Part shown: piece after piece, positions 2,133 through 29,027 of the stretch | How the letters are laid out: the number at the start of each line of letters is the position of its first letter | How positions within the stretch are numbered: position 1 is the stretch's first letter | From: an uncultured bacterium | GTDB lineage: Bacteria; Patescibacteriota; Microgenomatia; UBA1400; UBA12108 | Direction of reading: 5' to 3' | Assembly (NCBI GenBank): GCA_963981525.1 | Contig: CAXCDZ010000002.1 | Coordinates: forward strand, 1-35,441 | Length of the DNA stretch: 35,441 nucleotides | Notes under the pieces: model-generated | The model's input: the letters and a program-made list of their open reading frames with translations, nothing else | Database searches by the model: none | Told to the model about the DNA's origin: nothing | Position numbers and translations under genes: made by a program

Positions 2133-4259
2133 TTAGCGGCGAGGAGGTCGACTGCCGTTATCACGAAGCTCAGTGAGAGAGACCATTGAGAGGTCGATCC
2201 TGCCCTGATCATCAACTCCTTTGACGTAGACTTTGACTTTTTCGCCAACTTTGACGAGTGCCGAGGCGTCCTGGACGAATTCTTTGCTCATCCTGGAGAC
2301 GTGGACTAGTCCCTGTTTGCCGCCCATGATCTCGACGAAACAACCGTAGTTCTCGACTCTAACGACTGTGCCTTCGTGCTCTTCTCCCGCTTCGGGGACG
2401 TGAACGATGCCTTTGATGGTTCGGACTGCTTTGTCGATTGATTCTTGATCAGGTGAGCTGACGTTAACAACGCCTACTCCAGTGTCATCACTGATGTCGA
2501 TCTGAGCGCCCGTGTCGGCCATGATGGCTTTGATGATTTTGCCACCTGGTCCGATGACTCCACCGATCATATCCATGGGAATCTCGAACTGCTCGATCTT
2601 GGGAGCGTATTTGGAGAGAGTAGCACGTGGTGTGTCGATTGCAGCTACCATCACGTCCATGATCTCGAGCCTGGCTACCTTGGCTTGGGCGAGTGCTCGC
2701 TCAAGAACGTCGAAGGTGATACCTGCTACCTTGATGTCCATCTGAAGCGCGGTGATACCATCTCTGGTTCCTGCGACCTTGAAGTCCATGTCACCGATGT
2801 GATCTTCGATCCCTTTGATGTCGGTAAGCACAACGTGCTTATCACCATCAGTCATGAGACCCATCGCAATACCTGCAACTGGCTTCTTGAGAGGAACTCC
2901 TGCGGACATAAGTGAGAGAGTAGAACCACAGACTGAGGCCTGCGAGGTACTACCATTACTACTCATGACCTCGGAAACGACCTGGATCGTGTAAGGGAAG
3001 TCAGCTTGAGAAGGCAACATTGGGAAGAGCGCACGCTCAGCGAGTGCTCCGTGTCCAATCTCACGACGACCGGGGAATCCGTAACGTCCTGGGTCACCGT
3101 ATGAGTAAGGAGGTGCATTGTAGTGATGGATGTAGTGCTTGTTTTCTTCGCTTTCCATACTCTCGATGATCTGGCCGAGTGCGGGAGATCCGAGTGTAGT
3201 GACTGAGAGAACCTGAGTCTCACCCCTCTGGAACATGGCAGAGCCATGAGTGCGAGGGAGAAGATCTACTTCGGCTGTGAGCTCACGAATCTTAGTGAGT
3301 TCGCGTCCGTCTAATCTAACCTCATCTGTGATAGTCATTTTGCGAGCAAGCTTGGTAAAGACGTCGTTAACAACCTTTTCGATCTCACTGTTAGTGAGTG
3401 CGCCTTCTACTGGTTCTGCATCATCTGCGGGGAACTGAGCTACTGCGATCTCGTGGATATCTTTTTTGTCGAAACCATCTTGGCCGAGAGCCTTTTTGAG
3501 AAGAGGTTCGACTGCTTTCTCGACTTCTGCAACTTTTGCTGCGTCGAGCTCAGCTGGCAATGGAAACTCAGCTTTTTTTGAACCAACTTCTTTGACGAGA
3601 TCATTGATCACGCCAACTAACTTCTTGACTTCAGCTTGAGCTTGTTTCATGCCTTCGAGGGTCTCTTCTTCTGTTGCCTCATTGGCACCGGCCTCGACCA
3701 TGACGACTCCATTGTCGCTGGCAGAGACGATAAGATCGAGCTTGCTACTCTCACGCTCCTCGTATGTGGGGTTGACCATGTATTTGCCATCAACTAAGCC
3801 CATGCGCACTGCTGCGATTGGACCTGCCCAAGGGATGTCAGAGATGCTTAGTGCGGCTGAGACTCCAACGAGAGCTGGCATGTCTGCGTCGTTTGCACCA
3901 TCTGCTGAGAGAACGGTAGCAACTACCTGGATGTCTCTTTTGACGTGAGTTGGGAATAGAGGTCTGATGGAGCGATCGATGATCCTGCCTTTGAGGATGG
4001 CCTCATCTCGAGGACGACCATCGCGTTTGACCCAGCGGCTACCTTTGATCTTGCCGCCAGCATATAGCTTTTCGGCGAACTCGACGGAGAGCGGGAAGTA
4101 AGGGAGGTGGGTGTCACGATCTGCCATACAGGCGGTGACGTGAACAACAGTCTCGCCATAAGTGACGAGGACAGCTGCGTTAGTAAGAGAGGCGAACTTA
4201 CCTGTTTCGAGGGTAAGATCTTTACCACCTAATTGGGTGGTGACTTTTGTTGATTTCAT
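2133..4259 (-). CDS. pnp: Polyribonucleotide nucleotidyltransferase (PNPase)
   Basis: 708 aa. Two RNase PH-like halves (RIDGR-type LDGRELTKIR, GSAMFQRGETQ) followed by KH (GGVIGPGGKIIKAI) and S1 (GTVVRVENYGCFVEI) domains. Sits in the conserved rpsO-pnp arrangement. Confidence 0.97.
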   Translation of the reverse strand: MKSTKVTTQLGGKDLTLETGKFASLTNAAVLVTYGETVVHVTACMADRDTHLPYFPLSVEFAEKLYAGGKIKGSRWVKRDGRPRDEAILKGRIIDRSIRPLFPTHVKRDIQVVATVLSADGANDADMPALVGVSAALSISDIPWAGPIAAVRMGLVDGKYMVNPTYEERESSKLDLIVSASDNGVVMVEAGANEATEEETLEGMKQAQAEVKKLVGVINDLVKEVGSKKAEFPLPAELDAAKVAEVEKAVEPLLKKALGQDGFDKKDIHEIAVAQFPADDAEPVEGALTNSEIEKVVNDVFTKLARKMTITDEVRLDGRELTKIRELTAEVDLLPRTHGSAMFQRGETQVLSVTTLGSPALGQIIESMESEENKHYIHHYNAPPYSYGDPGRYGFPGRREIGHGALAERALFPMLPSQADFPYTIQVVSEVMSSNGSTSQASVCGSTLSLMSAGVPLKKPVAGIAMGLMTDGDKHVVLTDIKGIEDHIGDMDFKVAGTRDGITALQMDIKVAGITFDVLERALAQAKVARLEIMDVMVAAIDTPRATLSKYAPKIEQFEIPMDMIGGVIGPGGKIIKAIMADTGAQIDISDDTGVGVVNVSSPDQESIDKAVRTIKGIVHVPEAGEEHEGTVVRVENYGCFVEIMGGKQGLVHVSRMSKEFVQDASALVKVGEKVKVYVKGVDDQGRIDLSMVSLTELRDNGSRPPRR

Positions 4260-5510: not shown

Positions 5511-7001
5511 TTAATCGACTGATTCTGATTTCTTATAGGCTATAATAACAGCTTTCTCTGTGATGTCAAGCTTGGGAGAGAGGATGATTCCGCATTCGTT
5601 CCCTGCCTTGATCTCGTGGATCTTTTCTTTGCCGGTTCTAATTGACTTGATCCGAGCGTTTTTGAGCTCTTTACTCCCCTTTTTCTTGAGGTGGACTGTG
5701 TCTCCAACCGTGAGCTTGCCTGACTCAACTGTGCAGCCTGCGACTATAGACTCATTGATTTGGAAAATTTTGAGCACTTTTGCCTGTCCTAGCTCTTCTT
5801 CGTCGATCGTGGGCTCGAGGATGCGCAGCACTCTTTTCTCAAGATACTCGAGAAGTTCATAGATGACCTGATAGGTCTTGACGATTACTCCGTCAGTTTC
5901 TGCGATGTTTTTTGTATGACTGCTGACTTTGATAGCAAAACCGAGAATGATGGCGCCAGTAGAAGTCGCAAGATGAATATCTGCATCGGTAATGCTGCCA
6001 GTACCAGAGGAGATAAGATTGATCTCAGGAGTAAGGCTGGATTTGATTGCTTCGAGAGAGCCTAGGGAGTCTGATTTGAGGATCAGATTAAGGCGATCAG
6101 TGGGTTCAGCGGGTGAATCCAACAGGGACTCTCCTCCCGCCTCTGGCGTCCCAACTTGGCTTTCTGCCAGGTCTCCTGTCGAGGAGAGTCCCTGGGCGTC
6201 GGATACAATGTGTGGGCCGGTGGTGACGACCTCACCAACATGAGGGAGAGAGTTAAAACCAAGAATCTGAGCTGGTTGACCTGGGGTGACCTGTTTGAGC
6301 GAGAGTCCAGAGGGGGAAATAAGAGCGCGGACTTTGCCACTAGCTGAAGAAGTGCTAATCTCGTCGCCGACCTTGAGAGTCCCTTCCTTGACTACGACCG
6401 ATACTTTGACTCCCCTTTTCATGTCTTTTTGGGCTTCGATGATAGGGGCAGTGAGGACGGCGTCTCTCAGATCTTTTAGCTCCTCTAGTTCGGCAATCAG
6501 GATAATCTGCTCAAGAAGTGAGTCAACTCCCTTGCCTTCTTTGGCTGAGATCTCGACAACTGGAGTGTTGCCGCCGTATCCTTCGACAAAAACCTGGAGT
6601 TCGGTGAGTTCGGCTTTGGCCTTATCTGCGGTGACGTGAGGACGATCCATCTTGTTGATGGCAACGAGGAAGGGGATTTTGGCATCAGTAAGATGTTTGA
6701 CGGATTCTTTGGTCTGGGGTTTGACTCCGTCGTCGGCGGCGACGATCAGGATAGCTAGATCAGCGACGGCAGCACCGCGGGAGCGCATCTCACTAAAAGC
6801 TGCGTGACCAGGAGTATCGATAAATGTGATTGCCTTACCCTGATATTCTGCCTGATATGCACCGATGCCCTGGGTAATACCACCGACTTCGCCGGCTTGG
6901 ACGTGCGCATCGCGAATGTAGTCTAGGAGAGTAGTTTTGCCGTGATCAACGTGACCAAGAATAGCTACGACGGGAGGTCTGCCGATATTACTTTTTGCCA
7001 C
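5511..7001 (-). CDS. infB: Translation initiation factor IF-2, minimal form that starts almost at the G domain
   Basis: G domain motifs AILGHVDHGKTT, DTPGH and NKMD, followed by the IF2 domain II/C1/C2 pattern. The longest ORF starts at ATG 7127 but would overlap nusA by 140 nt. The GTG at 6999-7001, preceded by GAGGAAAAAGAGC, overlaps nusA by only 14 nt and is chosen here. The choice of start is uncertain. Confidence 0.85.
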   Translation of the reverse strand: MAKSNIGRPPVVAILGHVDHGKTTLLDYIRDAHVQAGEVGGITQGIGAYQAEYQGKAITFIDTPGHAAFSEMRSRGAAVADLAILIVAADDGVKPQTKESVKHLTDAKIPFLVAINKMDRPHVTADKAKAELTELQVFVEGYGGNTPVVEISAKEGKGVDSLLEQIILIAELEELKDLRDAVLTAPIIEAQKDMKRGVKVSVVVKEGTLKVGDEISTSSASGKVRALISPSGLSLKQVTPGQPAQILGFNSLPHVGEVVTTGPHIVSDAQGLSSTGDLAESQVGTPEAGGESLLDSPAEPTDRLNLILKSDSLGSLEAIKSSLTPEINLISSGTGSITDADIHLATSTGAIILGFAIKVSSHTKNIAETDGVIVKTYQVIYELLEYLEKRVLRILEPTIDEEELGQAKVLKIFQINESIVAGCTVESGKLTVGDTVHLKKKGSKELKNARIKSIRTGKEKIHEIKAGNECGIILSPKLDITEKAVIIAYKKSESVD

Positions 7002-8238
7002 GCTCTTTTTCCTCGGCGGCTTTTTCGTCTTGGTATCTCTTGAGACGATCTGCTTCTTCTTTTGCCTGATCAGCTCTCTTGTAGAAGCGAGCGATTGCCT
7101 TGACGATCTCGACTGGACCACGATCATCTACTTCTCTGATCTCGTCTTCCATCTTCTCGTGTTTGGCTTCGAGAGCTTTGACTGTGGTAATACCCTTTTC
7201 AAGGAGGTGATTACGGATCTTAGAGGACAAACCAAGTGAGTCGAGCTCAAACTCTTCTTGACCAGTAGTGGAGACGGCAACTTTGGTCTCACCATCACCC
7301 TTGAGGTCGATTTTGTAACCTGTGAGCTTGGCAGCTAACCTGGCATTCTGGCCGCCTTTACCGATCGCGAGGGAGAGCTGGTCTTCGGGGACGACGATGG
7401 TTGCTTGCTTATTGTCCTCGTCGATTGTGACAGAGAGGTTTTCGGCAGGGGCGAGCGCGGAGGCGATGTACTCGTCGATCTTGTCAGAATACTCGACAAT
7501 ATCGATCTTCTCACCGTTGAGCTCATTGATGACGGCCTGGACTCTGACTCCTTTTTGGCCGACGCATGATCCGACTGGATCTACTCCATCTTGAGTGCTT
7601 TTGACGGCGAGTTTGGTGCGGTGACCTGCTTCTCTGGCAATGGCAACGATCTCGACTGCGCCTGAGCCTACTTCGGGGACTTCGCGGGCGAAGAGTTCTT
7701 TGACTAGCTCTGGAACTGCACGGGAGACGATTATCGCCTTGCCCTTATAAGTTTCTCTAATCTCGAGAATGTAGACTGCAATCCTCTGGTTGAGGCGGTA
7801 ATATTCGTTAGCGATAGCTTGGTCGGTTGGCATAAGAGCCTGACCGCGACCGATGTCAACGACGACGTGGGGACCTTCGAACCTGAGAACCATACCGGTA
7901 ATCATGGAGTCGATCTTACCTTCGTACTCACTGATGATGGCGTCTTTCTCGGCTTCCCTGACTCTCTGGAGAATGACTTGTTTGGCAACTTGAGCGGCAA
8001 TCCGACCGAATCCAGCAGGGGTGGCGTCTTTGCCATCCTTCTTGACTGAGATGGCACCTGTTTCACCATCAACTGCGACCTCATATGCATCGATGTCTTC
8101 TTCGGCAATATCGAAGTCACGGCGAAGGGCTGCCTGGATGGCCTGTCTGATACTGTCGATGATAACTTCTGGCTCTATGCCTCGCTCGGAACTAATTGCA
8201 GTGAGTGCGAGTGCGAAGTCTGATCTAATTTGTGCCAT
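6988..8238 (-). CDS. nusA: Transcription termination/antitermination factor NusA
   Basis: N-terminal domain (ISSERGIEPEVIIDSIRQAI), S1, two KH domains (GSCVGQKGVRVQAV, LAIGKGGQNARLAAKLTG) and a C-terminal HhH-like segment. Start set at ATG 8236-8238 (MAQIRSDF), which has AAGGAG 6 nt upstream. The track ORF extends 11 codons further. Confidence 0.93.
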   Translation of the reverse strand: MAQIRSDFALALTAISSERGIEPEVIIDSIRQAIQAALRRDFDIAEEDIDAYEVAVDGETGAISVKKDGKDATPAGFGRIAAQVAKQVILQRVREAEKDAIISEYEGKIDSMITGMVLRFEGPHVVVDIGRGQALMPTDQAIANEYYRLNQRIAVYILEIRETYKGKAIIVSRAVPELVKELFAREVPEVGSGAVEIVAIAREAGHRTKLAVKSTQDGVDPVGSCVGQKGVRVQAVINELNGEKIDIVEYSDKIDEYIASALAPAENLSVTIDEDNKQATIVVPEDQLSLAIGKGGQNARLAAKLTGYKIDLKGDGETKVAVSTTGQEEFELDSLGLSSKIRNHLLEKGITTVKALEAKHEKMEDEIREVDDRGPVEIVKAIARFYKRADQAKEEADRLKRYQDEKAAEEKERGKK

Positions 8239-10880: not shown

Positions 10881-10902
10881 CGAGAAGATTGGTGTTGTTG
10901 GT

Positions 10903-10928
10903 GTTACTATGTTTCGAAACATGGTAAC
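10903..10928. repeat. 26-nt near-perfect palindrome GTTACTATGTTTCGAAACATGGTAAC, copy 1
   Basis: Identical to 12589-12614. The two arms are 12 nt each with one T/G mismatch and centre on TTCGAA. Lies 22 nt upstream of the -35 of the small-ORF promoter and 9 nt after the HAD stop. Confidence 0.85.
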
Positions 10929-10936
10929 AAAAAGGG

Positions 10937-11794
10937 TTAGTTAATAAATTGTTGCAAGATTTTGATAATTCCATTCTCATCAACTGAGTTGCCGACAATA
11001 TAATTGCCTTCACTCTTAGACTTAACTAGATCTTGGAGTTCTTGCTTGGCGTTGCCCATGGCACCAGCGTAGCCACATAACTCGATGAACTGCCAATCAC
11101 TAGGACTATCTCCGACTCCCAAATAATCTGACATGGGAATGTTGAGAGAACTAGCAATACTAATTGCAGCTTCTTTTTTGCTAATACCGTGTGCCGTAAC
11201 GATCCCGAATTGGAGAGGTAGGATTACTGGGTGGACTCCCCAACTGGTTTTGACGAGGTCGTCAAACTGAGACATGATACTAACCACTCTCTCCTTATCC
11301 TTTTCGTTGAGTGCGATGGGCATGATTTTGGTGATCTTTTGCTTCCCAGCCTCCACAACCAAATCATCCACTATGACGGGATCTTGCTGGAGAACGTGAC
11401 GATGGCCTGGAGTAATACCGTCTGCGACTTGACTCTCTTGAATGTAGTAGTTGTCTACTGTGTAGAACTCGGTATAAACATTTTCCTCTAATAACTTCTT
11501 GATAACCTGAGTGGCCGAGTCGAAATCTAGATTATATTCTGCAACAACTTTACCTGCAATTGGATCAATAATAACCCCTCCTCCATCTGTGATGTGGAGA
11601 TTGTCGAGACCAGCGTCCTCGATAATCTTATCTATCGAGAAGTGTGGCTTGGCTGTGCAGAGAGTGATGGGAATACCGAGAGACTTGACTCGCTTGAGCT
11701 CGGCAATTACGTCAGGGTGAGGCCATGGAGAGTTGTAATCTATCTTCTCTCCAACAATAACTCCGTCGACGTCGAGAATTATTCCTTTGATCAT
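10937..11794 (-). CDS. HAD-superfamily hydrolase, Cof/subfamily IIB-like
   Basis: Motif I DVDGV near the N-terminus (MIKGIILDVDGVIVGE), motif II TLCTAKP, and a C-terminal GVGDSPSDWQF...GNA motif pattern. Its ATGA start/stop overlaps the upstream HAD gene. Confidence 0.8.
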   Translation of the reverse strand: MIKGIILDVDGVIVGEKIDYNSPWPHPDVIAELKRVKSLGIPITLCTAKPHFSIDKIIEDAGLDNLHITDGGGVIIDPIAGKVVAEYNLDFDSATQVIKKLLEENVYTEFYTVDNYYIQESQVADGITPGHRHVLQQDPVIVDDLVVEAGKQKITKIMPIALNEKDKERVVSIMSQFDDLVKTSWGVHPVILPLQFGIVTAHGISKKEAAISIASSLNIPMSDYLGVGDSPSDWQFIELCGYAGAMGNAKQELQDLVKSKSEGNYIVGNSVDENGIIKILQQFIN

Positions 11795-12561
11795 GTAGTT
11801 TTTCTTTCTGGCAATTTGCCTGATAATAATAAATCTATTGTATGAGCTAAGCCATCTTCATCTACTGATGGCGCAATGTAGTCTGCAATCTGTTTGAGAT
11901 CATGTGTGGCATTACCCATAGCAACTTTGTATCCTGCAGAGTTGAGAAGTGGAATATCATTATTATAGTCACCAACTGCAACAACTTCACTTTTGTTGAG
12001 ATTGAGTATTTGCAATAGATGTTTCATTGCAGATTCTTTTGTTGCTTCTTTGTGAGTGATGTGAATATCAACCTTTCCCTCATTCCATGATCCAGCGCTA
12101 TGGTATGCAATACCATCCACCTTGCTCAGTTTCTCAAGAATCTCGTCTTGATGTTGAGGTAATGTGTTCATGAGATAGATAACTCTCTCTGAACCTGTGA
12201 CTACTTTGTCTATTGCGGAAACTCCTTTTAGCTCATCTCCAAAGAGGATTTCAAATGAATAGGGTTTGCAAAGCTTGACTACCTGACTAACTTGCTTCTC
12301 TAATAGGCGTTTCTCCCACAATGTTTCTTTGCTAACTGGATTAATTATTTGAGTTCCACCAGAAATAATACATGGGTCAACCAGCCCAAGTTTTTCGAGA
12401 ATTGGCTTGGCGTTAGTTATTGGCCTGCCTGTCGCAGCGCAGACAATAATTCTTTCTTTGGCTTTGGCAACGGTGCTAATAACAGCTGATGATGGCACAC
12501 CATCTGTCTGCAGTGGTATTGCCGTGCCGTCGAGATCAAAAACTATTGCCTTATATTGCAT
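11791..12561 (-). CDS. HAD-superfamily hydrolase, Cof-type (subfamily IIB)
   Basis: MQYKAIVFDLDGT, CAATGRP, and AVGDYNNDIPLLNSAGYKVAMGNA are classic Cof motifs. Start set at ATG 12559-12561, because the track start at 12582 is a TTG. Confidence 0.85.
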   Translation of the reverse strand: MQYKAIVFDLDGTAIPLQTDGVPSSAVISTVAKAKERIIVCAATGRPITNAKPILEKLGLVDPCIISGGTQIINPVSKETLWEKRLLEKQVSQVVKLCKPYSFEILFGDELKGVSAIDKVVTGSERVIYLMNTLPQHQDEILEKLSKVDGIAYHSAGSWNEGKVDIHITHKEATKESAMKHLLQILNLNKSEVVAVGDYNNDIPLLNSAGYKVAMGNATHDLKQIADYIAPSVDEDGLAHTIDLLLSGKLPERKTT

Positions 12562-12588
12562 GTGGAGAATTATAACAGGCAAGATGTT

Positions 12589-12614
12589 GTTACTATGTTT
12601 CGAAACATGGTAAC
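12589..12614. promoter_or_regulatory. 26-nt palindrome copy 2, overlapping the -35 region of the HAD operon promoter (candidate operator)
   Basis: Same 26-mer as 10903-10928. TATAAT (minus strand, 12574-12569) lies 14 nt from the palindrome and 7 nt before the HAD ATG. Confidence 0.55.
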
Positions 12615-15180: not shown

Positions 15181-15244
15181 ATTTATTTTCTCCTTATTAG
15201 AGTAATTTTTAATTTGTATAAATAATTTTTATATTAATACCAAT

Positions 15245-15307
15245 AGGGTCTGACCCTTTTGGGCTGCTTTTCATGTCTTTGACTTGAGTCCTTTAGGGTC
15301 AGACCCT
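15245..15307 (+). repeat. Palindromic repeat element, copy A (AGGGTCTGACCCT...AGGGTCAGACCCT)
   Basis: Shares CAATAGGGTCTGACC...TTTTGGGCTGCTTTTC...GAGTCCTTTA(A)GGTCAGACCCTTT with copy C (26410-26471). Has 13-nt terminal inverted repeats. Overlaps the last ~12 codons and the stop codon of grpE. Confidence 0.85.
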
Positions 15308-15765
15308 TTGGAAGAGCCGCTACCAATGACGACGGAGGCTGTGCGGAGGACACGATCATGGAGTTTGTATCCCGTGCGAGTGGTGGCGATGATTTGACCT
15401 TGTTTGCCAGCCACGAGCTCGGAGCACTCCATGCAGGTGGGATCGAAGTCTCCTGATGTGTCGACTTTTACTACCCCCTCTTCCTGGATAATCTTGTCAA
15501 GCTGGGCCAAGAGCATTGAGATCCCCTGGTCGTTGAGACTCTGATCTGAGAGATCAAGGTTGTCACGAAGATCAAGGAGCTTGGTGATGAGATTGGCGGT
15601 TGCGAACTTGATTACGTGTGAGGAGTCGCGCTGGAAACGTTTTTCGAGATTGGCGTAGTCGGCCACTGCGCGAGCGAGTTTGGCCTCTAGAGCCTGGATC
15701 ATAGGATCAGGTGAGTTAGTATCTTTGGCCGGGGTTGGGGTTGGTTTGTGATCTTTTTTTGTCAT
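15271..15765 (-). CDS. grpE: Nucleotide exchange factor GrpE (compact, 164 aa)
   Basis: Coiled-coil N-terminal part (ALEAKLARAVADYANLEKRFQRD) and a C-terminal beta domain (GYKLHDRVLRTASVVIG). Located between hrcA and dnaK. The last residues SSKGSDPKGLKSKT and the TGA stop come from repeat copy A. Confidence 0.9.
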   Translation of the reverse strand: MTKKDHKPTPTPAKDTNSPDPMIQALEAKLARAVADYANLEKRFQRDSSHVIKFATANLITKLLDLRDNLDLSDQSLNDQGISMLLAQLDKIIQEEGVVKVDTSGDFDPTCMECSELVAGKQGQIIATTRTGYKLHDRVLRTASVVIGSGSSKGSDPKGLKSKT

Positions 15766-18443: not shown

Positions 18444-18473
18444 GTCTGTTAGAGTTTGTCCTTTTTAGCCAAT

Positions 18474-18546
18474 AAGGACTCTCCTTTCACCTGCTGGTGA
18501 GCCCTTCTTGATTTGCAATCAGGAATTCCTGTTAAGGAGAGTCCTT
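18474..18546 (+). repeat. Palindromic repeat element, divergent copy F (AAGGACTCTCCTT...AAGGAGAGTCCTT)
   Basis: Has the same flanks as the family (CAATAAGG... and ...CCTTTG) and the same 13-nt terminal inverted-repeat architecture. The interior differs and contains two small hairpins (CACC-TGCT-GGTG and TGATT-TGC-AATCA). Lies between the murJ stop and the lepA start. Confidence 0.65.
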
Positions 18547-18550
18547 TGTA

Positions 18551-20203
18551 TTATACCGCGGATTCACCTGACTCGAGAGGTTCTGTGGATTTGGCGAGTG
18601 CCTTATGCCAGTTGCCGAGCTTGCCGAAGAGTTTGACGAAGATCGAGAGCTCGGGAACACGCAAGAGATATGAGAGTGAGATATAGACTGAGATACCGAT
18701 CACGGTGACGGTGATGGTGAGGAGGATAAGAGGGAAAGTCCGCGTGGTATCAAAGATCATTTGATCAAGGAATCTGAGAGGGATCCAGAGGGAGAGAGTC
18801 GTGATTGCGGTGAGCGTGAGCATGCGAAGGAGAGGTTTTGCGAGGTTAGCTAGATTAAACTGAGCGAGGCGATAGAGGGCGAGGGTGAGAATGATGGTCT
18901 CGAGAATCGAGGCGACGGTGATAGCGGTTGCCATACCAATTATGCCTGAGCGTAGAATGATCAGAAGATAATAACTGAGACTGATGTTAACGGTGGTTGA
19001 GATGAGGTTAATGATCAGGGGAGTTTTGGTATTGTGGAGAGCGTAGTAGACCCTGACGATGACGTGGGTGAGGGAACGAGCTGCGACTGAGATGGCAAGG
19101 ATCGCGACTAGCTTAGCTGTAGTAACAGTCTCGCTCCACGGAAAAGAGTCAGCACCGTATGCAAGGCGGACGAGAGGAATACGTAGAATGAGAAGGATCG
19201 CTGAGGCGGGGAGGGCGAGATACATCATTTCGAGAATGGTGCGATTGACCATACGAGCAAGGTGTTTGAGTGTGCCACTATCTGCCTCTTTGGTTAAGAA
19301 TGGGAGAGAAGCCTGTCCGATAGGAATACCAATGAGGCGGATCGGGAGACCGGAGAGCTGCTGGGCGATGGCCATCATAGTGACTGTGCCAGATGAAAGG
19401 AGAGTAGAAAAAACGATGATGGCAGTCTGCTCAACCTGGATCAAAGAAAGCGTGAGGGCGCGTGGGAGCATGAGTCTGGTCATTTCTCGGATTGTGCCCG
19501 TACCTTTACCCCAAGTGAATTGGTAACGGAAACCTAGTTTGAGAGCGAGGGGGATCTGGGCTGCAAGATGAAGAATCGCACCGATAACGACGCCAACTGC
19601 AGGACCATAAATGCCGAGGGTGGGACCCAGAACGACGATACCAATGATAATGCCGAGATTATAGAGAATTGGAGAGAGGGCGGGAATGAGGAAGCGCTTG
19701 TGAGACTGGATAATCCCAGTGAGGAAACTGGAGAAACCAAAAAATAACTGAGCAAGAGCCATGATGCGAGTGAGAGAAGTCATGAGATCAAGCTGGGCAG
19801 AATCGAAGCCACGTCCAATCATGGCACTAAGAGGGCGCGCAAAAACTAGAATAGCAATCGAGAGTGCCATCATACCGAGCATGACGTAACTAATCATGGA
19901 GGAGGCGATGATGTTGCTCTTTTTTCTATTACTGATGTGTTTGGAAAAAATGGGAATGAATGCTGAGGAGAGAGCGCCGACAATGATAATCTGAAAAACC
20001 ATGTCTGGAAGACGGAATGCCGCCCAGAAAACATCCACGAGCTCCTTGGTGTTATAGAAGTAGCTGATGAGTAGTCTGGTACGGATGACTCCAAGCAGTG
20101 CGGAGAGTAAAGTCGCGACCATGATGATGGTGGCGGCAGAGAGGATCGAGGAGTTTTGTTTTTCGAGTAAATGCTGACCGTTACGAACGAGGCGTTTGAA
20201 CAT
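18551..20203 (-). CDS. murJ: Lipid II flippase MurJ (MviN family)
   Basis: 550 aa and polytopic (about 14 hydrophobic segments). The N-terminus SILSAATIIMVATLLSALLGVIRTRLLISYF...AFRLPDMVFQIIIVGALSSAFIPIFS is typical of MurJ. Confidence 0.88.
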   Translation of the reverse strand: MFKRLVRNGQHLLEKQNSSILSAATIIMVATLLSALLGVIRTRLLISYFYNTKELVDVFWAAFRLPDMVFQIIIVGALSSAFIPIFSKHISNRKKSNIIASSMISYVMLGMMALSIAILVFARPLSAMIGRGFDSAQLDLMTSLTRIMALAQLFFGFSSFLTGIIQSHKRFLIPALSPILYNLGIIIGIVVLGPTLGIYGPAVGVVIGAILHLAAQIPLALKLGFRYQFTWGKGTGTIREMTRLMLPRALTLSLIQVEQTAIIVFSTLLSSGTVTMMAIAQQLSGLPIRLIGIPIGQASLPFLTKEADSGTLKHLARMVNRTILEMMYLALPASAILLILRIPLVRLAYGADSFPWSETVTTAKLVAILAISVAARSLTHVIVRVYYALHNTKTPLIINLISTTVNISLSYYLLIILRSGIIGMATAITVASILETIILTLALYRLAQFNLANLAKPLLRMLTLTAITTLSLWIPLRFLDQMIFDTTRTFPLILLTITVTVIGISVYISLSYLLRVPELSIFVKLFGKLGNWHKALAKSTEPLESGESAV

Positions 20204-20224
20204 AGCAATAAGTGTACTACAAGA

Positions 20225-20280
20225 TCTGTCCTTTTGGGGCTGCTTTTCGGGCTTGAAGCCTCGAGTCCTTTAAGGACAGA
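20225..20280 (+). repeat. Palindromic repeat element, copy B (TCTGTCCTT...AAGGACAGA)
   Basis: The interior TTTTGGGGCTGCTTTTCGGGCTTGAAGCCTCGAGTCCTTT is nearly identical to copies C and D. The terminal stems changed in a compensatory way. Lies in the divergent murJ/rpsT intergenic region. Confidence 0.85.
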
Positions 20281-20315
20281 CCTTCTGACGGCTTACAGAA
20301 CACAACCATTGGTAG

Positions 20316-26387: not shown

Positions 26388-26409
26388 AGAAAGTCTTTAA
26401 TTCCCAATA

Positions 26410-26471
26410 GGGTCTGACCTTTTTGGGCTGCTTTTCGGGCTTGAAGCCTCGAGTCCTTTAAGGTCAGACCC
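26410..26471 (+). repeat. Palindromic repeat element, copy C (GGGTCTGACCTT...AAGGTCAGACCC)
   Basis: Lies between convergent stop codons (26387 on plus, 26481 on minus). The interior TTTGGGCTGCTTTTCGGGCTTGAAGCCTCGAGTCCTTT is shared with copies B and D. Confidence 0.9.
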
Positions 26472-26480
26472 TTTAGTCCC

Positions 26481-29027
26481 CTATTTCCAGGATGGGAAGA
26501 GGGAGAAAGCTGTGTCCCAGTAAGCTTGTGGCATGGGAAAACCATAATAAAATGGAGAGATCAGCAAGAAGACGATAAGCGCGAGAGTAATGATGATGAG
26601 GCGCGTGCGAGATGAGAGAGTCCCAAGCCAAGAAGCAAGAATGATCATAAGAAAAGTAGCAGACGGAAGATAGTGATAGAAAAACATGATACGGGGAGAG
26701 AAGATCCAGGGGATCGTTAGTATTGCGTATAGAGTATAGAGTATGAAGTATGGGAACTTTTTGATTTTGGGCAGCTGCAAGATGAGAGCAACAAGGCCTA
26801 GCCACAACAAGATAGGATTGGACTGGGAGTAGATGTTGCTGATTTTGTCGCCGTACTCCACAAAATACCAAACTGGACGTAAGGAGAAGATCCACTGCCA
26901 AGGCAGTGACTGATAAGCGTGCGTGGCAACTAGGTTGGTGTGGTAGTACCACATCTGACGATGGAGCTCAAAAAACTGAGCCCAAGTGTAACCAGAAAGG
27001 AAAAATGGTGAGTAAGAAAGAAGATAGATACAAAGCGAAATTAAGACCAAGCGAATAGAAAGCAGTAAGTTACGAACACTCGCTAAAGCAAGGTTCGTAA
27101 CTTTGATATCTCTCAAATAGATGAGGGCGAGAGGGAGAACTCCGTAGAGTGCGGACCATTTGGAGGCGAGGGCGAGTCCGTAAAGTATGGCGCTTTTTTT
27201 CCAGCTCTTTGTGAGTGCGTAGTTGAGTGACCAGATAAAAAAGGTGAGCATGTAGATGTCGTTCATTCCGATTCTGCTTTGGACCAGATGCAGACCTTCG
27301 ATCGTGAGGAGGAATGCAGCGAGTGCGGCGGTAGAGCGCGAACGAAAGAGTGAGAGAGTGAGCCGATAAACTCCGTAAATACTCACTACTCCAAGAATGG
27401 CAGAGAAGAATCTCCAGGCGAAGGCAGTATCTCCAAAAGTTGCGAGTCCGAGAACCATGCCGTACTTGGCAACAGGAGGATGCGTCCACTCGTAGGCAAA
27501 ACCTTCTGGTGGAGTAGCCCACCAGATCCATGCTTCGAGATTATTGGAGAGTATTTCTTGGGCAGTAAAAGCATGGTAGACCTCGTCGAAGATGTGTTGC
27601 GGGGGACTACCGAGATTAACTAAGCGGAGGAAGAGTGCGAATATGAGAATCGAGGTGAGGAGTCTGTTTTTCTTAATCCAGGCTAAAAACTCTTTAATAG
27701 CTTTGGGCCAGTCCCAGAAAACTGCGAGGGAGAGAGTCGTGAGAGTAGTCGCGACAGAGGCGAGATTACCCCAGACAATATGCATAGGCCAGGTCTGATC
27801 GTGTAGTACCCAAGAATATGCGGCCCAGAGATTGAATGAAAAGAGAGTAGTGAGGAGCATGTAAGGAACAATCAGCCAAGAAGAGGTGAGAGTCGCGAGT
27901 GCGAGGAAAGGGAGTGCGAAAAGGAGGTGTCTTTCGTGCATCCGGGTAGTAAAGGTGAAAAAGGCTGCAAGGATAGTGCCGATAACTCTCGGGGCGTGGG
28001 AGCGATCCCATCCAGTGCGCGCCCAGAGCCTGAGAGTGTTAAGGGAGAGTAAGGAGAAGAAGAGTTGCCCCCATGACTGGAGAGTGAGGCCCAAAACCAA
28101 GTGATTATCAGGGGGCCATGAGGAGAGTGGAGAGCGAATATTCCAGAGATTAAAGGCGTTAATAGAGGTGTAGGGATAGGTACTTGCCTGCTCGAGAGTC
28201 TTGTCTAAAAGGAAGCGAAAAGCACCAAATGGAGTGGAGTTAACAAAGAGTGCGGGGAGGAGAAAAAGTAGTATGGCGTATAGCGTATAGAGTATTAAGT
28301 ATGGGAACTTGGGACGATGAGGGGACTTGATTAATATAATTGCGAAAACTGGGAGGGTGAGAATGACAATGGGTTTGAAGGCAACGGCGAGAGAGAGAAG
28401 AAGTGTGGCGTATAGCGTATGGCGTATAGCGTATGGGAAACGAAGAGATCTAAGAAAGTAAATGAGAGAAATAACTGCTAGTAGTGCTGGTAAGGAATCT
28501 GTCTGGCCCCACCAGGAGGTGTCACCGATAAAAGCTGGAGAGAGAATGAGGAGGGAGACTAAAAGATCGGACCTTTTTAGGCGGCTTTTCGGGCTTGAAG
28601 CCTCGAGTCCTTTAAGGTCCGACCTTCTTGCGATCGAATGTATCACTGCAATTAGACCGAGCTCGATAAGAGTGAAGAATGATTTGAAGACAATTGAGAA
28701 AGAGAGGGAGAAATAGGAAGAAAGATGGGAAATGAGTGCAAAAAGATAAACTGGGAGAGGAAGATAGTCACACCAAGTTGAGGCAAAAAACTCGGTCGGG
28801 CCAAGCTCCAGAATAAGTCTGCCCCATGCTGAGTAGGTGCCGATATCGTAGGGCTGGGCGGGTAAGGTGATAGCAAAAACTCGGATAGCGATGGCAATGA
28901 TGAGGACAATATATCCAAGATACTGCAAGGTCGGACCTTTTTGGGCTGCTTTTCGCGTCTTGCGACTCGAGTCCTTTAAGGTCCGACCTTGAGTCCGACC
29001 TTTAGAGATTTTTTGCCACATGGTCAT
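26481..29027 (-). CDS. Two-module GT-C membrane glycosyltransferase: N-terminal COG5542/Gpi18-like module fused to a C-terminal GT39 (PMT-type) module
   Basis: 848 aa and polytopic. The C-terminal half starts with the typical PMT N-terminus (LIFALFLRLVNLGSPPQHIFDEVYHAFTAQE) and ends with the PMT C-terminal pattern (YHTNLVATHAYQSLPWQWIFSLRPVWYF). The N-terminal half has YDIGTYSAWGRLIL...WCDYLPLPVYLF and YPYTSINAFNLW, as in ArnT/PIG-V-like GT-C proteins. The start is uncertain, because the first ~35 codons are repeat copy E. Confidence 0.75.
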   Translation of the reverse strand: MTMWQKISKGRTQGRTLKDSSRKTRKAAQKGPTLQYLGYIVLIIAIAIRVFAITLPAQPYDIGTYSAWGRLILELGPTEFFASTWCDYLPLPVYLFALISHLSSYFSLSFSIVFKSFFTLIELGLIAVIHSIARRSDLKGLEASSPKSRLKRSDLLVSLLILSPAFIGDTSWWGQTDSLPALLAVISLIYFLRSLRFPYAIRHTLYATLLLSLAVAFKPIVILTLPVFAIILIKSPHRPKFPYLILYTLYAILLFLLPALFVNSTPFGAFRFLLDKTLEQASTYPYTSINAFNLWNIRSPLSSWPPDNHLVLGLTLQSWGQLFFSLLSLNTLRLWARTGWDRSHAPRVIGTILAAFFTFTTRMHERHLLFALPFLALATLTSSWLIVPYMLLTTLFSFNLWAAYSWVLHDQTWPMHIVWGNLASVATTLTTLSLAVFWDWPKAIKEFLAWIKKNRLLTSILIFALFLRLVNLGSPPQHIFDEVYHAFTAQEILSNNLEAWIWWATPPEGFAYEWTHPPVAKYGMVLGLATFGDTAFAWRFFSAILGVVSIYGVYRLTLSLFRSRSTAALAAFLLTIEGLHLVQSRIGMNDIYMLTFFIWSLNYALTKSWKKSAILYGLALASKWSALYGVLPLALIYLRDIKVTNLALASVRNLLLSIRLVLISLCIYLLSYSPFFLSGYTWAQFFELHRQMWYYHTNLVATHAYQSLPWQWIFSLRPVWYFVEYGDKISNIYSQSNPILLWLGLVALILQLPKIKKFPYFILYTLYAILTIPWIFSPRIMFFYHYLPSATFLMIILASWLGTLSSRTRLIIITLALIVFLLISPFYYGFPMPQAYWDTAFSLFPSWK
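26718..26759. repeat. 42-nt intragenic repeat, copy X (encodes KFPYFILYTLYAIL)
   Basis: 39/42 identical to 28269-28310. The flanking sequence is unrelated at the nucleotide level. Confidence 0.85.
28269..28310. repeat. 42-nt intragenic repeat, copy Y (encodes KFPYLILYTLYAIL)
   Basis: 39/42 identical to 26718-26759. A related degenerate copy lies at 28403-28440 and contains a perfect 14-nt tandem duplication, GGCGTATAGCGTAT x2 (28407-28434). Confidence 0.85.
28567..28622 (+). repeat. Palindromic repeat element, copy D, inside the GT-C coding sequence
   Basis: TCGGACCTT...TTTTCGGGCTTGAAGCCTCGAGTCCTTT AAGGTCCGA. Translated in-frame on the minus strand as RRSDLKGLEASSPKSRLKRSDL. Confidence 0.9.
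28927..29005 (+). repeat. Palindromic repeat element, copy E, plus a 15-nt partial duplication at the LCP/GT-C junction
   Basis: AAGGTCGGACCTT...AAGGTCCGACCTT (28927-28990) is followed by GAGTCCGACCTTTAG. The inner hairpin differs from the other copies (GTC-TTGC-GAC instead of GGCT-TGA-AGCC). Read on the minus strand as GRTQGRTLKDSSRKTRKAAQKGPT in the long GT-C ORF. Confidence 0.85.

Follow-up and report, generated by a model that had tools for sequence, protein, structure and literature searches.

Seven copies of a small palindromic repeat are present in the stretch of DNA analyzed here (the window, 35,441 nucleotides of contig CAXCDZ010000002.1), which comes from an uncultured bacterium of the Microgenomatia (Patescibacteriota). 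These repeats probably belong to a superfamily of small, non-autonomous, hairpin-forming mobile elements of marine Microgenomates that reside both between genes and, in frame, inside them. The superfamily is previously undescribed and is specific to a group of marine Microgenomates within the Candidate Phyla Radiation (CPR, or Patescibacteria). Its members are repeated, are present at some orthologous sites and absent from others, occupy coding sequences in frame, replace one another or nest, decay, carry complementary double substitutions and keep a fixed orientation. Occupancy of coding sequences and mobility, which are the main points, were absent from the original prediction of a palindromic repeat family in this DNA. 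The finding is more interesting than that prediction in that coding sequences are invaded, including infB, the gene of translation initiation factor IF-2, and less so in that the elements are not gene-independent structural RNAs.

Seven copies built on a common handle

The original prediction had listed six copies with a common layout at high density. All six were found in place with their stems correctly quoted and the family is indeed repeated, but the count is seven per 35 kb, a copy at 6124-6193 having been unlisted. The common core holds for five of the six (subfamily T1) and not for that at 18474-18546, which has a different core (subfamily T2a). Likewise, the stems were complementary as described, but those at 20225 and 28567 reach 13 bp if one A.C mismatch is allowed in each. 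A covariance model of T1 matched five copies in the window and no more, at 82-100 bits (E 1e-22 to 1e-27); the unlisted copy, first located by a hairpin scan, is a relative of T2a called T2b and scored 77.9 bits (E 8e-17) with the T2 model. Further copies were found on the source contig and on related metagenome contigs, which gave a census of 31 distinct copies, the seven of the window included. In what follows, L001 and L004 are the left and right sides of the source contig, other L numbers are related contigs and P numbers are database proteins. An eighth copy on the source contig, about 9 kb past the left end of the window (L001:21031-21106), is a degenerate T1 of 71 bits that overlaps the ftsK stop codon and has the same orientation as the window's seven.

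The elements measure 61-88 nt from stem to stem and fall into subfamilies T1, T2a, T2b, T3 and T4, with T3 and T4 found on related metagenome contigs. Common to every subfamily is a handle composed of the left flank CC-W-A-T, a 13-bp outer stem of the design RRGG-N5-CCYY and the right flank NNGG, within which lies a subfamily-specific core of one or two small hairpins. Among 29 copies, C was present at -5 in 22 and at -4 in 27, A at -2 in 22 and GG at +3/+4 in 18. The T2a copy at 18474 has an interior unrelated to that of T1 and has in common with it the outer-stem design and the left flank CCAAT. Copies of T1 and T4 were also detected by the T2 model, with the orientation unchanged. The arms are in most variants near-palindromes in their own right (for example, GGTC-N-GACC, GGAC-N-GTCC and GGAG-N-CTCC), and the 3' arm of T2 in gene sense includes AAGGAG. 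No correlation between the variable five nucleotides of the stem and the flanking sequence, as in a guide and its target, was seen in the 29-copy alignment.

Table 1 Positions of the seven elements and of their host genes in the window
Feature	Position	Strand	Details
T2b element	6118-6199	+	stem CAGGGACTCTCCTC 6123-6136 pairs with 6181-6194; two inner hairpins
T1 element	15239-15313	+	stem 15245-15257/15295-15307; 84.5 bits
T2a element	18468-18552	+	stem 18474-18486/18534-18546; inner hairpins A and B; 97.5 bits
T1 element	20215-20290	+	13-bp stem 20221-20233/20272-20284, one A.C mismatch; 94.3 bits
T1 element	26403-26478	+	stem 26409-26421/26460-26472; 100.2 bits
T1 element	28557-28632	+	stem 28563-28575/28614-28626, one A.C mismatch; 89.7 bits
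T1 element	28918-29002 (model match 28921-28996)	+	stem 28927-28939/28978-28990; 82.5 bits
Host gene infB (IF-2)	5511-7127	-	start given by gene callers, 7001
Host gene grpE	15271-15765	-	164 aa here versus 147 aa in the element-free sister species
Host gene, 848-aa GT-C glycosyltransferase	26481-29027	-	carries two T1 elements

The distribution of the family is narrow. When 185,579 species-representative genomes were scanned with a T1 pattern, five chance-like matches in unrelated taxa resulted, none with flanking stems and about as many as our hand estimate for chance. In a metagenome pattern scan 5 of 14 loci were real, and viral contigs had no T1 or T2a. Rfam gave no match at gathering threshold over the whole window and noise alone at E<=10 over a 4-kb stretch with five elements, and the literature that was searched describes no such elements from CPR bacteria. 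These results agree with the earlier statement that the repeat is not recognizable as any named element. The best named homologues of the window's LepA are from Woesebacteria/Microgenomates (67-70% identity).

Occupancy of coding sequences and turnover

Most of the copies examined (22 of 31) lie in or overlap open reading frames (ORFs) and are read through in frame. Four of the seven window copies are in or overlap minus-strand ORFs with the frame kept and the other three are intergenic beside minus-strand genes, whereas none is inside a plus-strand gene. The T2b copy, which is open in all six frames, lies in frame within infB as QGLSSTGDLAESQVGTPEAGGESL in the variable linker of domain II-C1, and the T1 copy in grpE provides the last 11 codons of that gene plus its TGA stop codon. 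The two T1 copies of the glycosyltransferase gene are read in different frames: that at 28557 gives RRSDLKGLEASSPKSRLKRSDL in a loop between conserved membrane segments and that at 28918 gives GRTQGRTLKDSSRKTRKAAQKGPTLQ near the N-terminus. Conserved GT-C family motifs are found on both sides of these copies. The 848-residue ORF is a fusion of a GT87/DUF2029-like N-terminal half and a PMT/GT39 C-terminal half; GT87/DUF2029-like halves occur as stand-alone proteins of about 440 residues in other bacteria.

All intragenic copies lack a stop codon in the host frame and preserve the frame downstream. T1 read in gene sense has two open frames and a TAA in the third, and the frame with the stop is never the one used. 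In the predicted proteins the inserts amount to about 21-29 hydrophilic residues located in loops, linkers or termini, and the element-encoded peptides include SDLKGLEASSPK, TLLNRNSR and LQVEKGSPAGER. A search with concatenated element-encoded peptides showed that the carriers include Wzy_C O-antigen ligases, nucleotidyltransferase-like proteins, ATP-citrate-lyase-like proteins and IF-2. Some genes have several copies: one ORF has three (L017, 4816-6189), and the maximum in one gene is the four or five of an O-antigen-ligase/Wzy gene (P0031). One database protein (P0026, from a 2438-bp ENA contig) has the N-terminus of a Wzy ligase joined to an ATP-citrate-lyase-like C-terminus exactly at a T2a and is most likely a repeat-induced assembly chimera.

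The intragenic copies might conceivably go untranslated, either by ribosome hopping between near-identical arm codons or by removal of the element from the RNA, and in gene sense the codons of the two arms are indeed almost identical (RSDL...RSDL) and flank a strong hairpin, an arrangement that could provide take-off and landing sites. We consider this extremely improbable. Take-off sites are not followed by a stop codon, the only insertion that could be measured cleanly has a length of 78 nt (26 codons), and the uniformly stop-free host frames, the preserved downstream frames and the avoidance of the TAA-containing frame of T1 point to selection for translatability, of which bypass or splicing would have no need.

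Two of the host genes have further intragenic features. The glycosyltransferase ORF contains three direct DNA repeats, 73-76% identical, at 26702-26756, 28253-28307 and 28385-28439, each of which translates into a hydrophobic segment with the pattern KFPY(L/F/A)I(L/R)(Y/H)TLYA(I/T)L. One of them corresponds to an eight-residue insertion relative to the 65% identical orthologue P0001, and these could be a second, non-palindromic intragenic repeat. A 1221-residue TraG/AAA_10-like ORF on two related contigs (L038:1-3479 and L039:1-3488) contains an intein (Intein_splicing plus LAGLIDADG) as well as a T2b hairpin, two intragenic parasites of different kinds. Compared with close homologues, the window LepA has 16-21 additional residues, which were considered as elements and rejected as ordinary loop indels.

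Mobility is supported by orthologous sites that are occupied in some lineages and empty in others. The glycosyltransferase orthologue on L027 (65% identical) has a clean gap of exactly 78 nt opposite window 28918-28999. A contig of a sister species (L036; IF-2 79% identical) has the same gene order from lepA to ftsK, and in 21.5 kb of its syntenic DNA no T1 or T2 match was found at E<=1. Its grpE-dnaK junction is 9 nt, versus 99 nt including T1 in the window, its infB linker is 33 nt shorter and of unrelated sequence, and its ftsK end is without the degenerate T1 of L001. Similarly, a T4 that is present in L034 is absent from the yidC/band-7 junction of L030.

Elements also replace or enter one another. 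At the site of window 26409, L005 has a T2a in place of the right half of T1, and L034 has a truncated T4-like element followed by a T2b. In a Wzy gene, one and the same codon region is occupied by T1 in L017 and by T2a in L023 with retention of the remnant CCCAATCAG, and the incoming T2a is identical to a copy only 510 bp away. Arms have been partially duplicated at window 28993-29002 (the right arm of the T1 at 28918-29002) and at L035:2441-2456. The degenerate T1 at L001:21031-21106 is decaying, with several uncompensated stem mismatches. The idea that the two arms are a duplicated palindromic target was rejected, as the center bases and the non-palindromic arms fit an inverted repeat alone; the non-palindromic arms match at 13 of 13 positions as inverted repeats and at 10 of 13 as direct repeats.

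Paired arms, orientation and mode of spread

The six copies listed earlier fold on the plus strand as long hairpins of -28 to -41 kcal/mol (z -3.3 to -6.8), and none of 200 shuffles was as good. Covariation was assessed against 500 shuffles and against slid alignments. The outer stem of T2 (16 copies, in an alignment fitted to the covariance model and thus favoring structure) is 100% paired with seven of its 13 pairs changed on both sides. Within its 208 cells there are no one-sided changes, no G.U pairs and no mismatches; all the changes are full Watson-Crick swaps, including the transversion pairs CG<->GC and UA<->AU. The T1 outer stem (nine copies, in a MAFFT alignment not fitted to structure) is 97.4% paired with five of 13 pairs changed on both sides and none on one side, the non-pairs being solely A.C at one stem position in three copies. 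The whole T2 structure is 93.5% paired versus 82% in shuffles and 38-55% in slid controls. For both subfamilies no shuffle reached the observed score and slid controls overall were 13-57% paired. Hence, the paired substitutions that had been claimed for the terminal stems are strong in both T1 and T2, and their excess over both controls argues that the hairpin, or a perfect inverted repeat, is actively maintained. The companion claim for the inner hairpin held less well. In T1 this hairpin is 79% paired with mostly register shifts and one pair changed on both sides, and its covariation is weak, whereas in inner hairpin B of T2 four of seven pairs are doubly changed and a U.G pair is conserved.

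Three window T1 copies have 38-nt cores that are 0-2 differences apart and stems that differ at about 3 of 13 positions per arm. Thus, substitution is faster in the stems than in the unpaired core and always affects both arms. Two readings would fit the covariation, selection on the fold with a sequence-constrained core or a process of arm-to-arm copying. In the latter, arm identity would be kept by a mutational process (template switching or quasipalindrome correction, arm gene conversion, or re-synthesis at transposition) rather than by selection on the fold, a reading that concerns the cause of the covariation and is compatible with mobility. We hold it to be possible but doubtful. The spotless T2 outer stems with their full Watson-Crick swaps, the T1 stems that outpace near-identical cores and the two arm duplications are all as such copying would have it. 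However, an A.C mismatch persists at one particular stem position in three T1 copies and the decaying copy at the ftsK end has several mismatches, so correction is not automatic in resident copies, and inner hairpin B of T2 covaries as well.

Selection on an RNA fold would also explain the covariation if the elements were functional structured RNAs or cis-regulatory hairpins such as terminators, RNase sites, attenuators or small RNAs. Strong folds (-27 to -41 kcal/mol, z -3.3 to -6.8) and covariation above controls are consistent with such a role, as are the AAGGAG sequence of the T2 3' arm and the location of some copies 17-64 nt upstream of start codons (lepA, murJ and dnaK). In the window the T1 at 15239-15313 is 64 nt upstream of the dnaK start, the T2a is intergenic with the murJ stop on one side and the lepA start on the other, the T1 at 20215-20290 sits in the spacer from which murJ (start, 20203) and rpsT (start, 20353) diverge, and that at 26403-26478 lies between convergent stop codons (26387 and 26481). 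A functional RNA is nonetheless quite improbable: in-frame read-through is seen in 22 of the 31 copies, no U-tract follows the stem, Rfam gave no match and a sister species has kept these operons with nothing at the orthologous positions. Moreover, the mRNA strand is the less stable one in 21 of 26 copies, the conserved G.U pairs are on the strand antisense to the genes, and T2 outer stems never use G.U, which is unusual for selection at the RNA level. Nor, given the missing U-tract, the copies in ORFs and the empty orthologous sites, is there support for the suggestion of gene-independent marks of transcript ends or RNA processing.

The plus version of the element is on the G-rich strand in all 31 copies, at every locus, and is antisense to the host gene in every intragenic copy. 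Reverse strands scored 17-34 bits versus 75-101 bits forward with the T1 and T2 models (25-34 bits for T1 in the window), so the common polarity noted in the original prediction is robust. The accompanying statement that polarity disregards the neighboring genes was misleading, as every copy in the window is in or beside a minus-strand gene. Irrespective of gene direction, GC skew is positive throughout the window and over 53 kb of its contig. In folding-energy comparisons of 26 copies the plus version folded slightly better in 21 as RNA and in 20 as DNA, and the conserved G.U/G.T pairs are carried by the plus version. This mildly favors the strand that is not the mRNA as the folded one, a comparison confounded by G-richness.

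Such strict orientation relative to GC skew in all loci is also what might be expected of sites recruited by the host for a dimeric protein that binds double-stranded DNA, either chromosome architecture signals of the KOPS/Chi type or gyrase and nucleoid-protein sites like those of repetitive extragenic palindromic sequences (REPs). A symmetric dimer would read the near-palindromic arm variants, and the handle is constant across subfamilies with unrelated cores. Sites of this non-selfish kind seem improbable to us: copies are entirely missing from the corresponding 21 kb of a sister species' chromosome, strains differ in the positions that are occupied, one copy is decaying, the family distribution is narrow and copies are found inside essential coding sequences, with up to four or five per gene.

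As mobile elements, the copies would insert between genes and, unusually often, inside genes, with intragenic copies persisting only where the frame stays open. An enzyme supplied in trans may recognize the handle on a folded single strand, and the hairpin would be kept because copies that lose it stop spreading. Strand-specific insertion would point to DNA exposed as a single strand, either at the replication fork or within transcription bubbles. We suggest, tentatively, a single-strand logic like that of IS200/IS605 elements or of the REP-associated tyrosine transposases (RAYTs), rather than a cut-and-paste DDE transposase. A bolder and rather unlikely version is an undescribed single-strand transposition system of CPR bacteria in which the handle (CCWAT plus a 13-bp stem of free sequence) is the sole recognized part, one arm is re-synthesized from the other in each round, integration is coupled to one DNA strand and elements home into other elements and coding loops. 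Re-synthesis of an arm in each round would explain why stems change faster than cores without wobble or one-sided changes. If this were true, a single-strand system would be a regular source of new protein segments, including those of IF-2, in extremely reduced genomes.

Several observations weigh against the mobile-element interpretation. No transposase or RAYT/Y1 gene was found in precomputed Pfam lists for about 190 kb of loci or among the scanned window ORFs. No target-site duplication is visible: direct repeats flank none of 29 copies and are absent from the filled/empty comparisons (L027 and L036), in which the exact boundaries are blurred by divergence. The T2 stems, free of wobble and one-sided changes, fit mutational arm copying as well as selection. 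No copy lies in a gene with a G-rich coding strand, although about 20 kb were surveyed and about four copies expected by a rough tally. A switch in the sign of GC skew is expected at oriC, but L037 (1-21296), which spans dnaN-dnaA and the divergent rnpA-yidD-yidC genes, keeps a negative skew throughout, and the orientation may follow either replication or transcription. Finally, translation of the inserts is predicted from open frames.

Other palindromes were seen alongside the elements. A near-perfect palindrome of 26-28 nt, GTTACTATGTTTCGAAACATGGTAAC, is present twice (97% identical; 10899-10930 and 12585-12614) and brackets two HAD-hydrolase ORFs (10937-11794 and 11791-12582). The pair resembles operators to which a dimeric regulator would bind and has no relation to the hairpin elements. 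Also operator-like are TTTGAGGTCACAAATTGTGACCTCAA and a closely similar sequence, both 26-nt palindromes, in tandem at L004:14884-14943, about 2.2 kb past the right end of the window near Bro-N/ORF6N genes. A different palindromic repeat, CGATCCCGGA...TCCGGGATCG, is found in a related genome at L035:1369-1405, 3459-3496 and 3484-3607, sites that include the yidC/band-7 spacer, where another species has T4.

Comparison with known systems

Several candidate classes were discarded. An intrinsic terminator scan gave arm fragments at chance (12 found, 11.6 expected), and the flanks are TTGG/ATTGG without T-runs. Integron attC sites were rejected in that the left flank is sometimes GCCCAAC but the right flank is without GTTRRRY, several copies lie inside single ORFs and no integrase was found in the loci. 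T2 compared by eye with the hammerhead three-way junction (CUGANGA/GAAA) showed no fit. A tRNA/tmRNA scan found none, and a promoter/terminator scan gave chance-level results.

Mitochondrial byp elements and the bypass of phage T4 gene 60 resemble our elements as short hairpin-forming mobile insertions in coding sequence; byp elements, however, disrupt the frame, and the ribosome skips them. The frame is always open in the elements described here, which makes their translation the simpler interpretation. In IS200/IS605-derived elements the left and right ends each have a hairpin of their own, and the target is a defined tetranucleotide. The absence of a target-site duplication, a folded single strand rather than a duplex as the probable recognized form and a strong orientation bias relative to strand asymmetry are points of likeness, whereas here one long hairpin joins both ends, no target motif was definable and no TnpA was found in the loci. 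Single-strand transposition of this type is partly covered in PMC3116915.

Classical miniature inverted-repeat transposable elements (ERIC, BOX, Correia/NEMIS and QMITE) have given occasional in-frame fusions (PMC10969869, PMC3184786), and compensatory base changes have been reported for bcr1 (PMC3184786). These elements and ours have in common terminal inverted repeats, small size, ORFs that run through the element and 3'-terminal gene extensions. In contrast, our elements have no target-site duplication, their terminal repeats vary between copies rather than forming a fixed transposase-binding site, their orientation bias is complete and no parent insertion sequence with the same ends was found. 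Neither solo arms nor a long element bounded by arms was present in the window, L001, L004 or L036, the genome being incomplete.

REPs and the hairpins formed from pairs of them (REPINs) are mobilized by RAYT tyrosine (Y1/HUH) transposases and are extragenic by definition (Bertels & Rainey 2011, PMC3116915). The resemblance to REPINs extends to a hairpin of two inverted arms, here mostly near-palindromic, a conserved short motif at the 5' foot, a hairpin predicted in single-stranded DNA or RNA, the arrival of new copies into or next to existing ones and a non-autonomous nature. However, about 70% of our copies touch ORFs (22 of 31; four of seven in the window), the 13-nt arms are too short for each to form a hairpin and there is no GTAG motif. 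A cognate RAYT gene (PF01797), which in REP systems usually has the repeats on its flanks, was absent from the surveyed Pfam lists and window ORFs, which cover the loci rather than a whole genome.

The closest functional parallel is provided by the Rickettsia palindromic elements (RPEs), small palindromic repeats of about 105-150 bp that reside in frame in protein-coding genes (Ogata et al. 2000, as summarized in PMC10969869 and PMC3184786). As with RPEs, several palindromic families with a predicted hairpin fold occupy one reduced genome, a large fraction is in frame in unrelated genes including housekeeping genes, each family gives a recurring peptide, no transposase is known to be associated and the distribution is lineage-specific. 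Our elements are set apart from RPEs by size (61-88 nt) and by their CPR host, and they also differ in their modular handle with unrelated cores, their strict orientation (31 of 31) and their mutual replacement and nesting. Invasion of reading frames by palindromic selfish DNA is best known from Rickettsia, and an independent and structurally different case in CPR bacteria of free-living communities suggests that this is a recurrent outcome in small gene-dense genomes with little intergenic space. In practice the repeats cause chimeric contigs such as that of P0026 and inflate or alter the predicted proteins of CPR metagenome-assembled genomes. As a modular family that is polymorphic between co-occurring strains and is present in public time-series metagenomes, they render turnover, orientation bias and the origin of new peptide stretches within essential proteins directly measurable. 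The elements work like RPEs and resemble REPINs in architecture and nesting while falling outside the definition of either.

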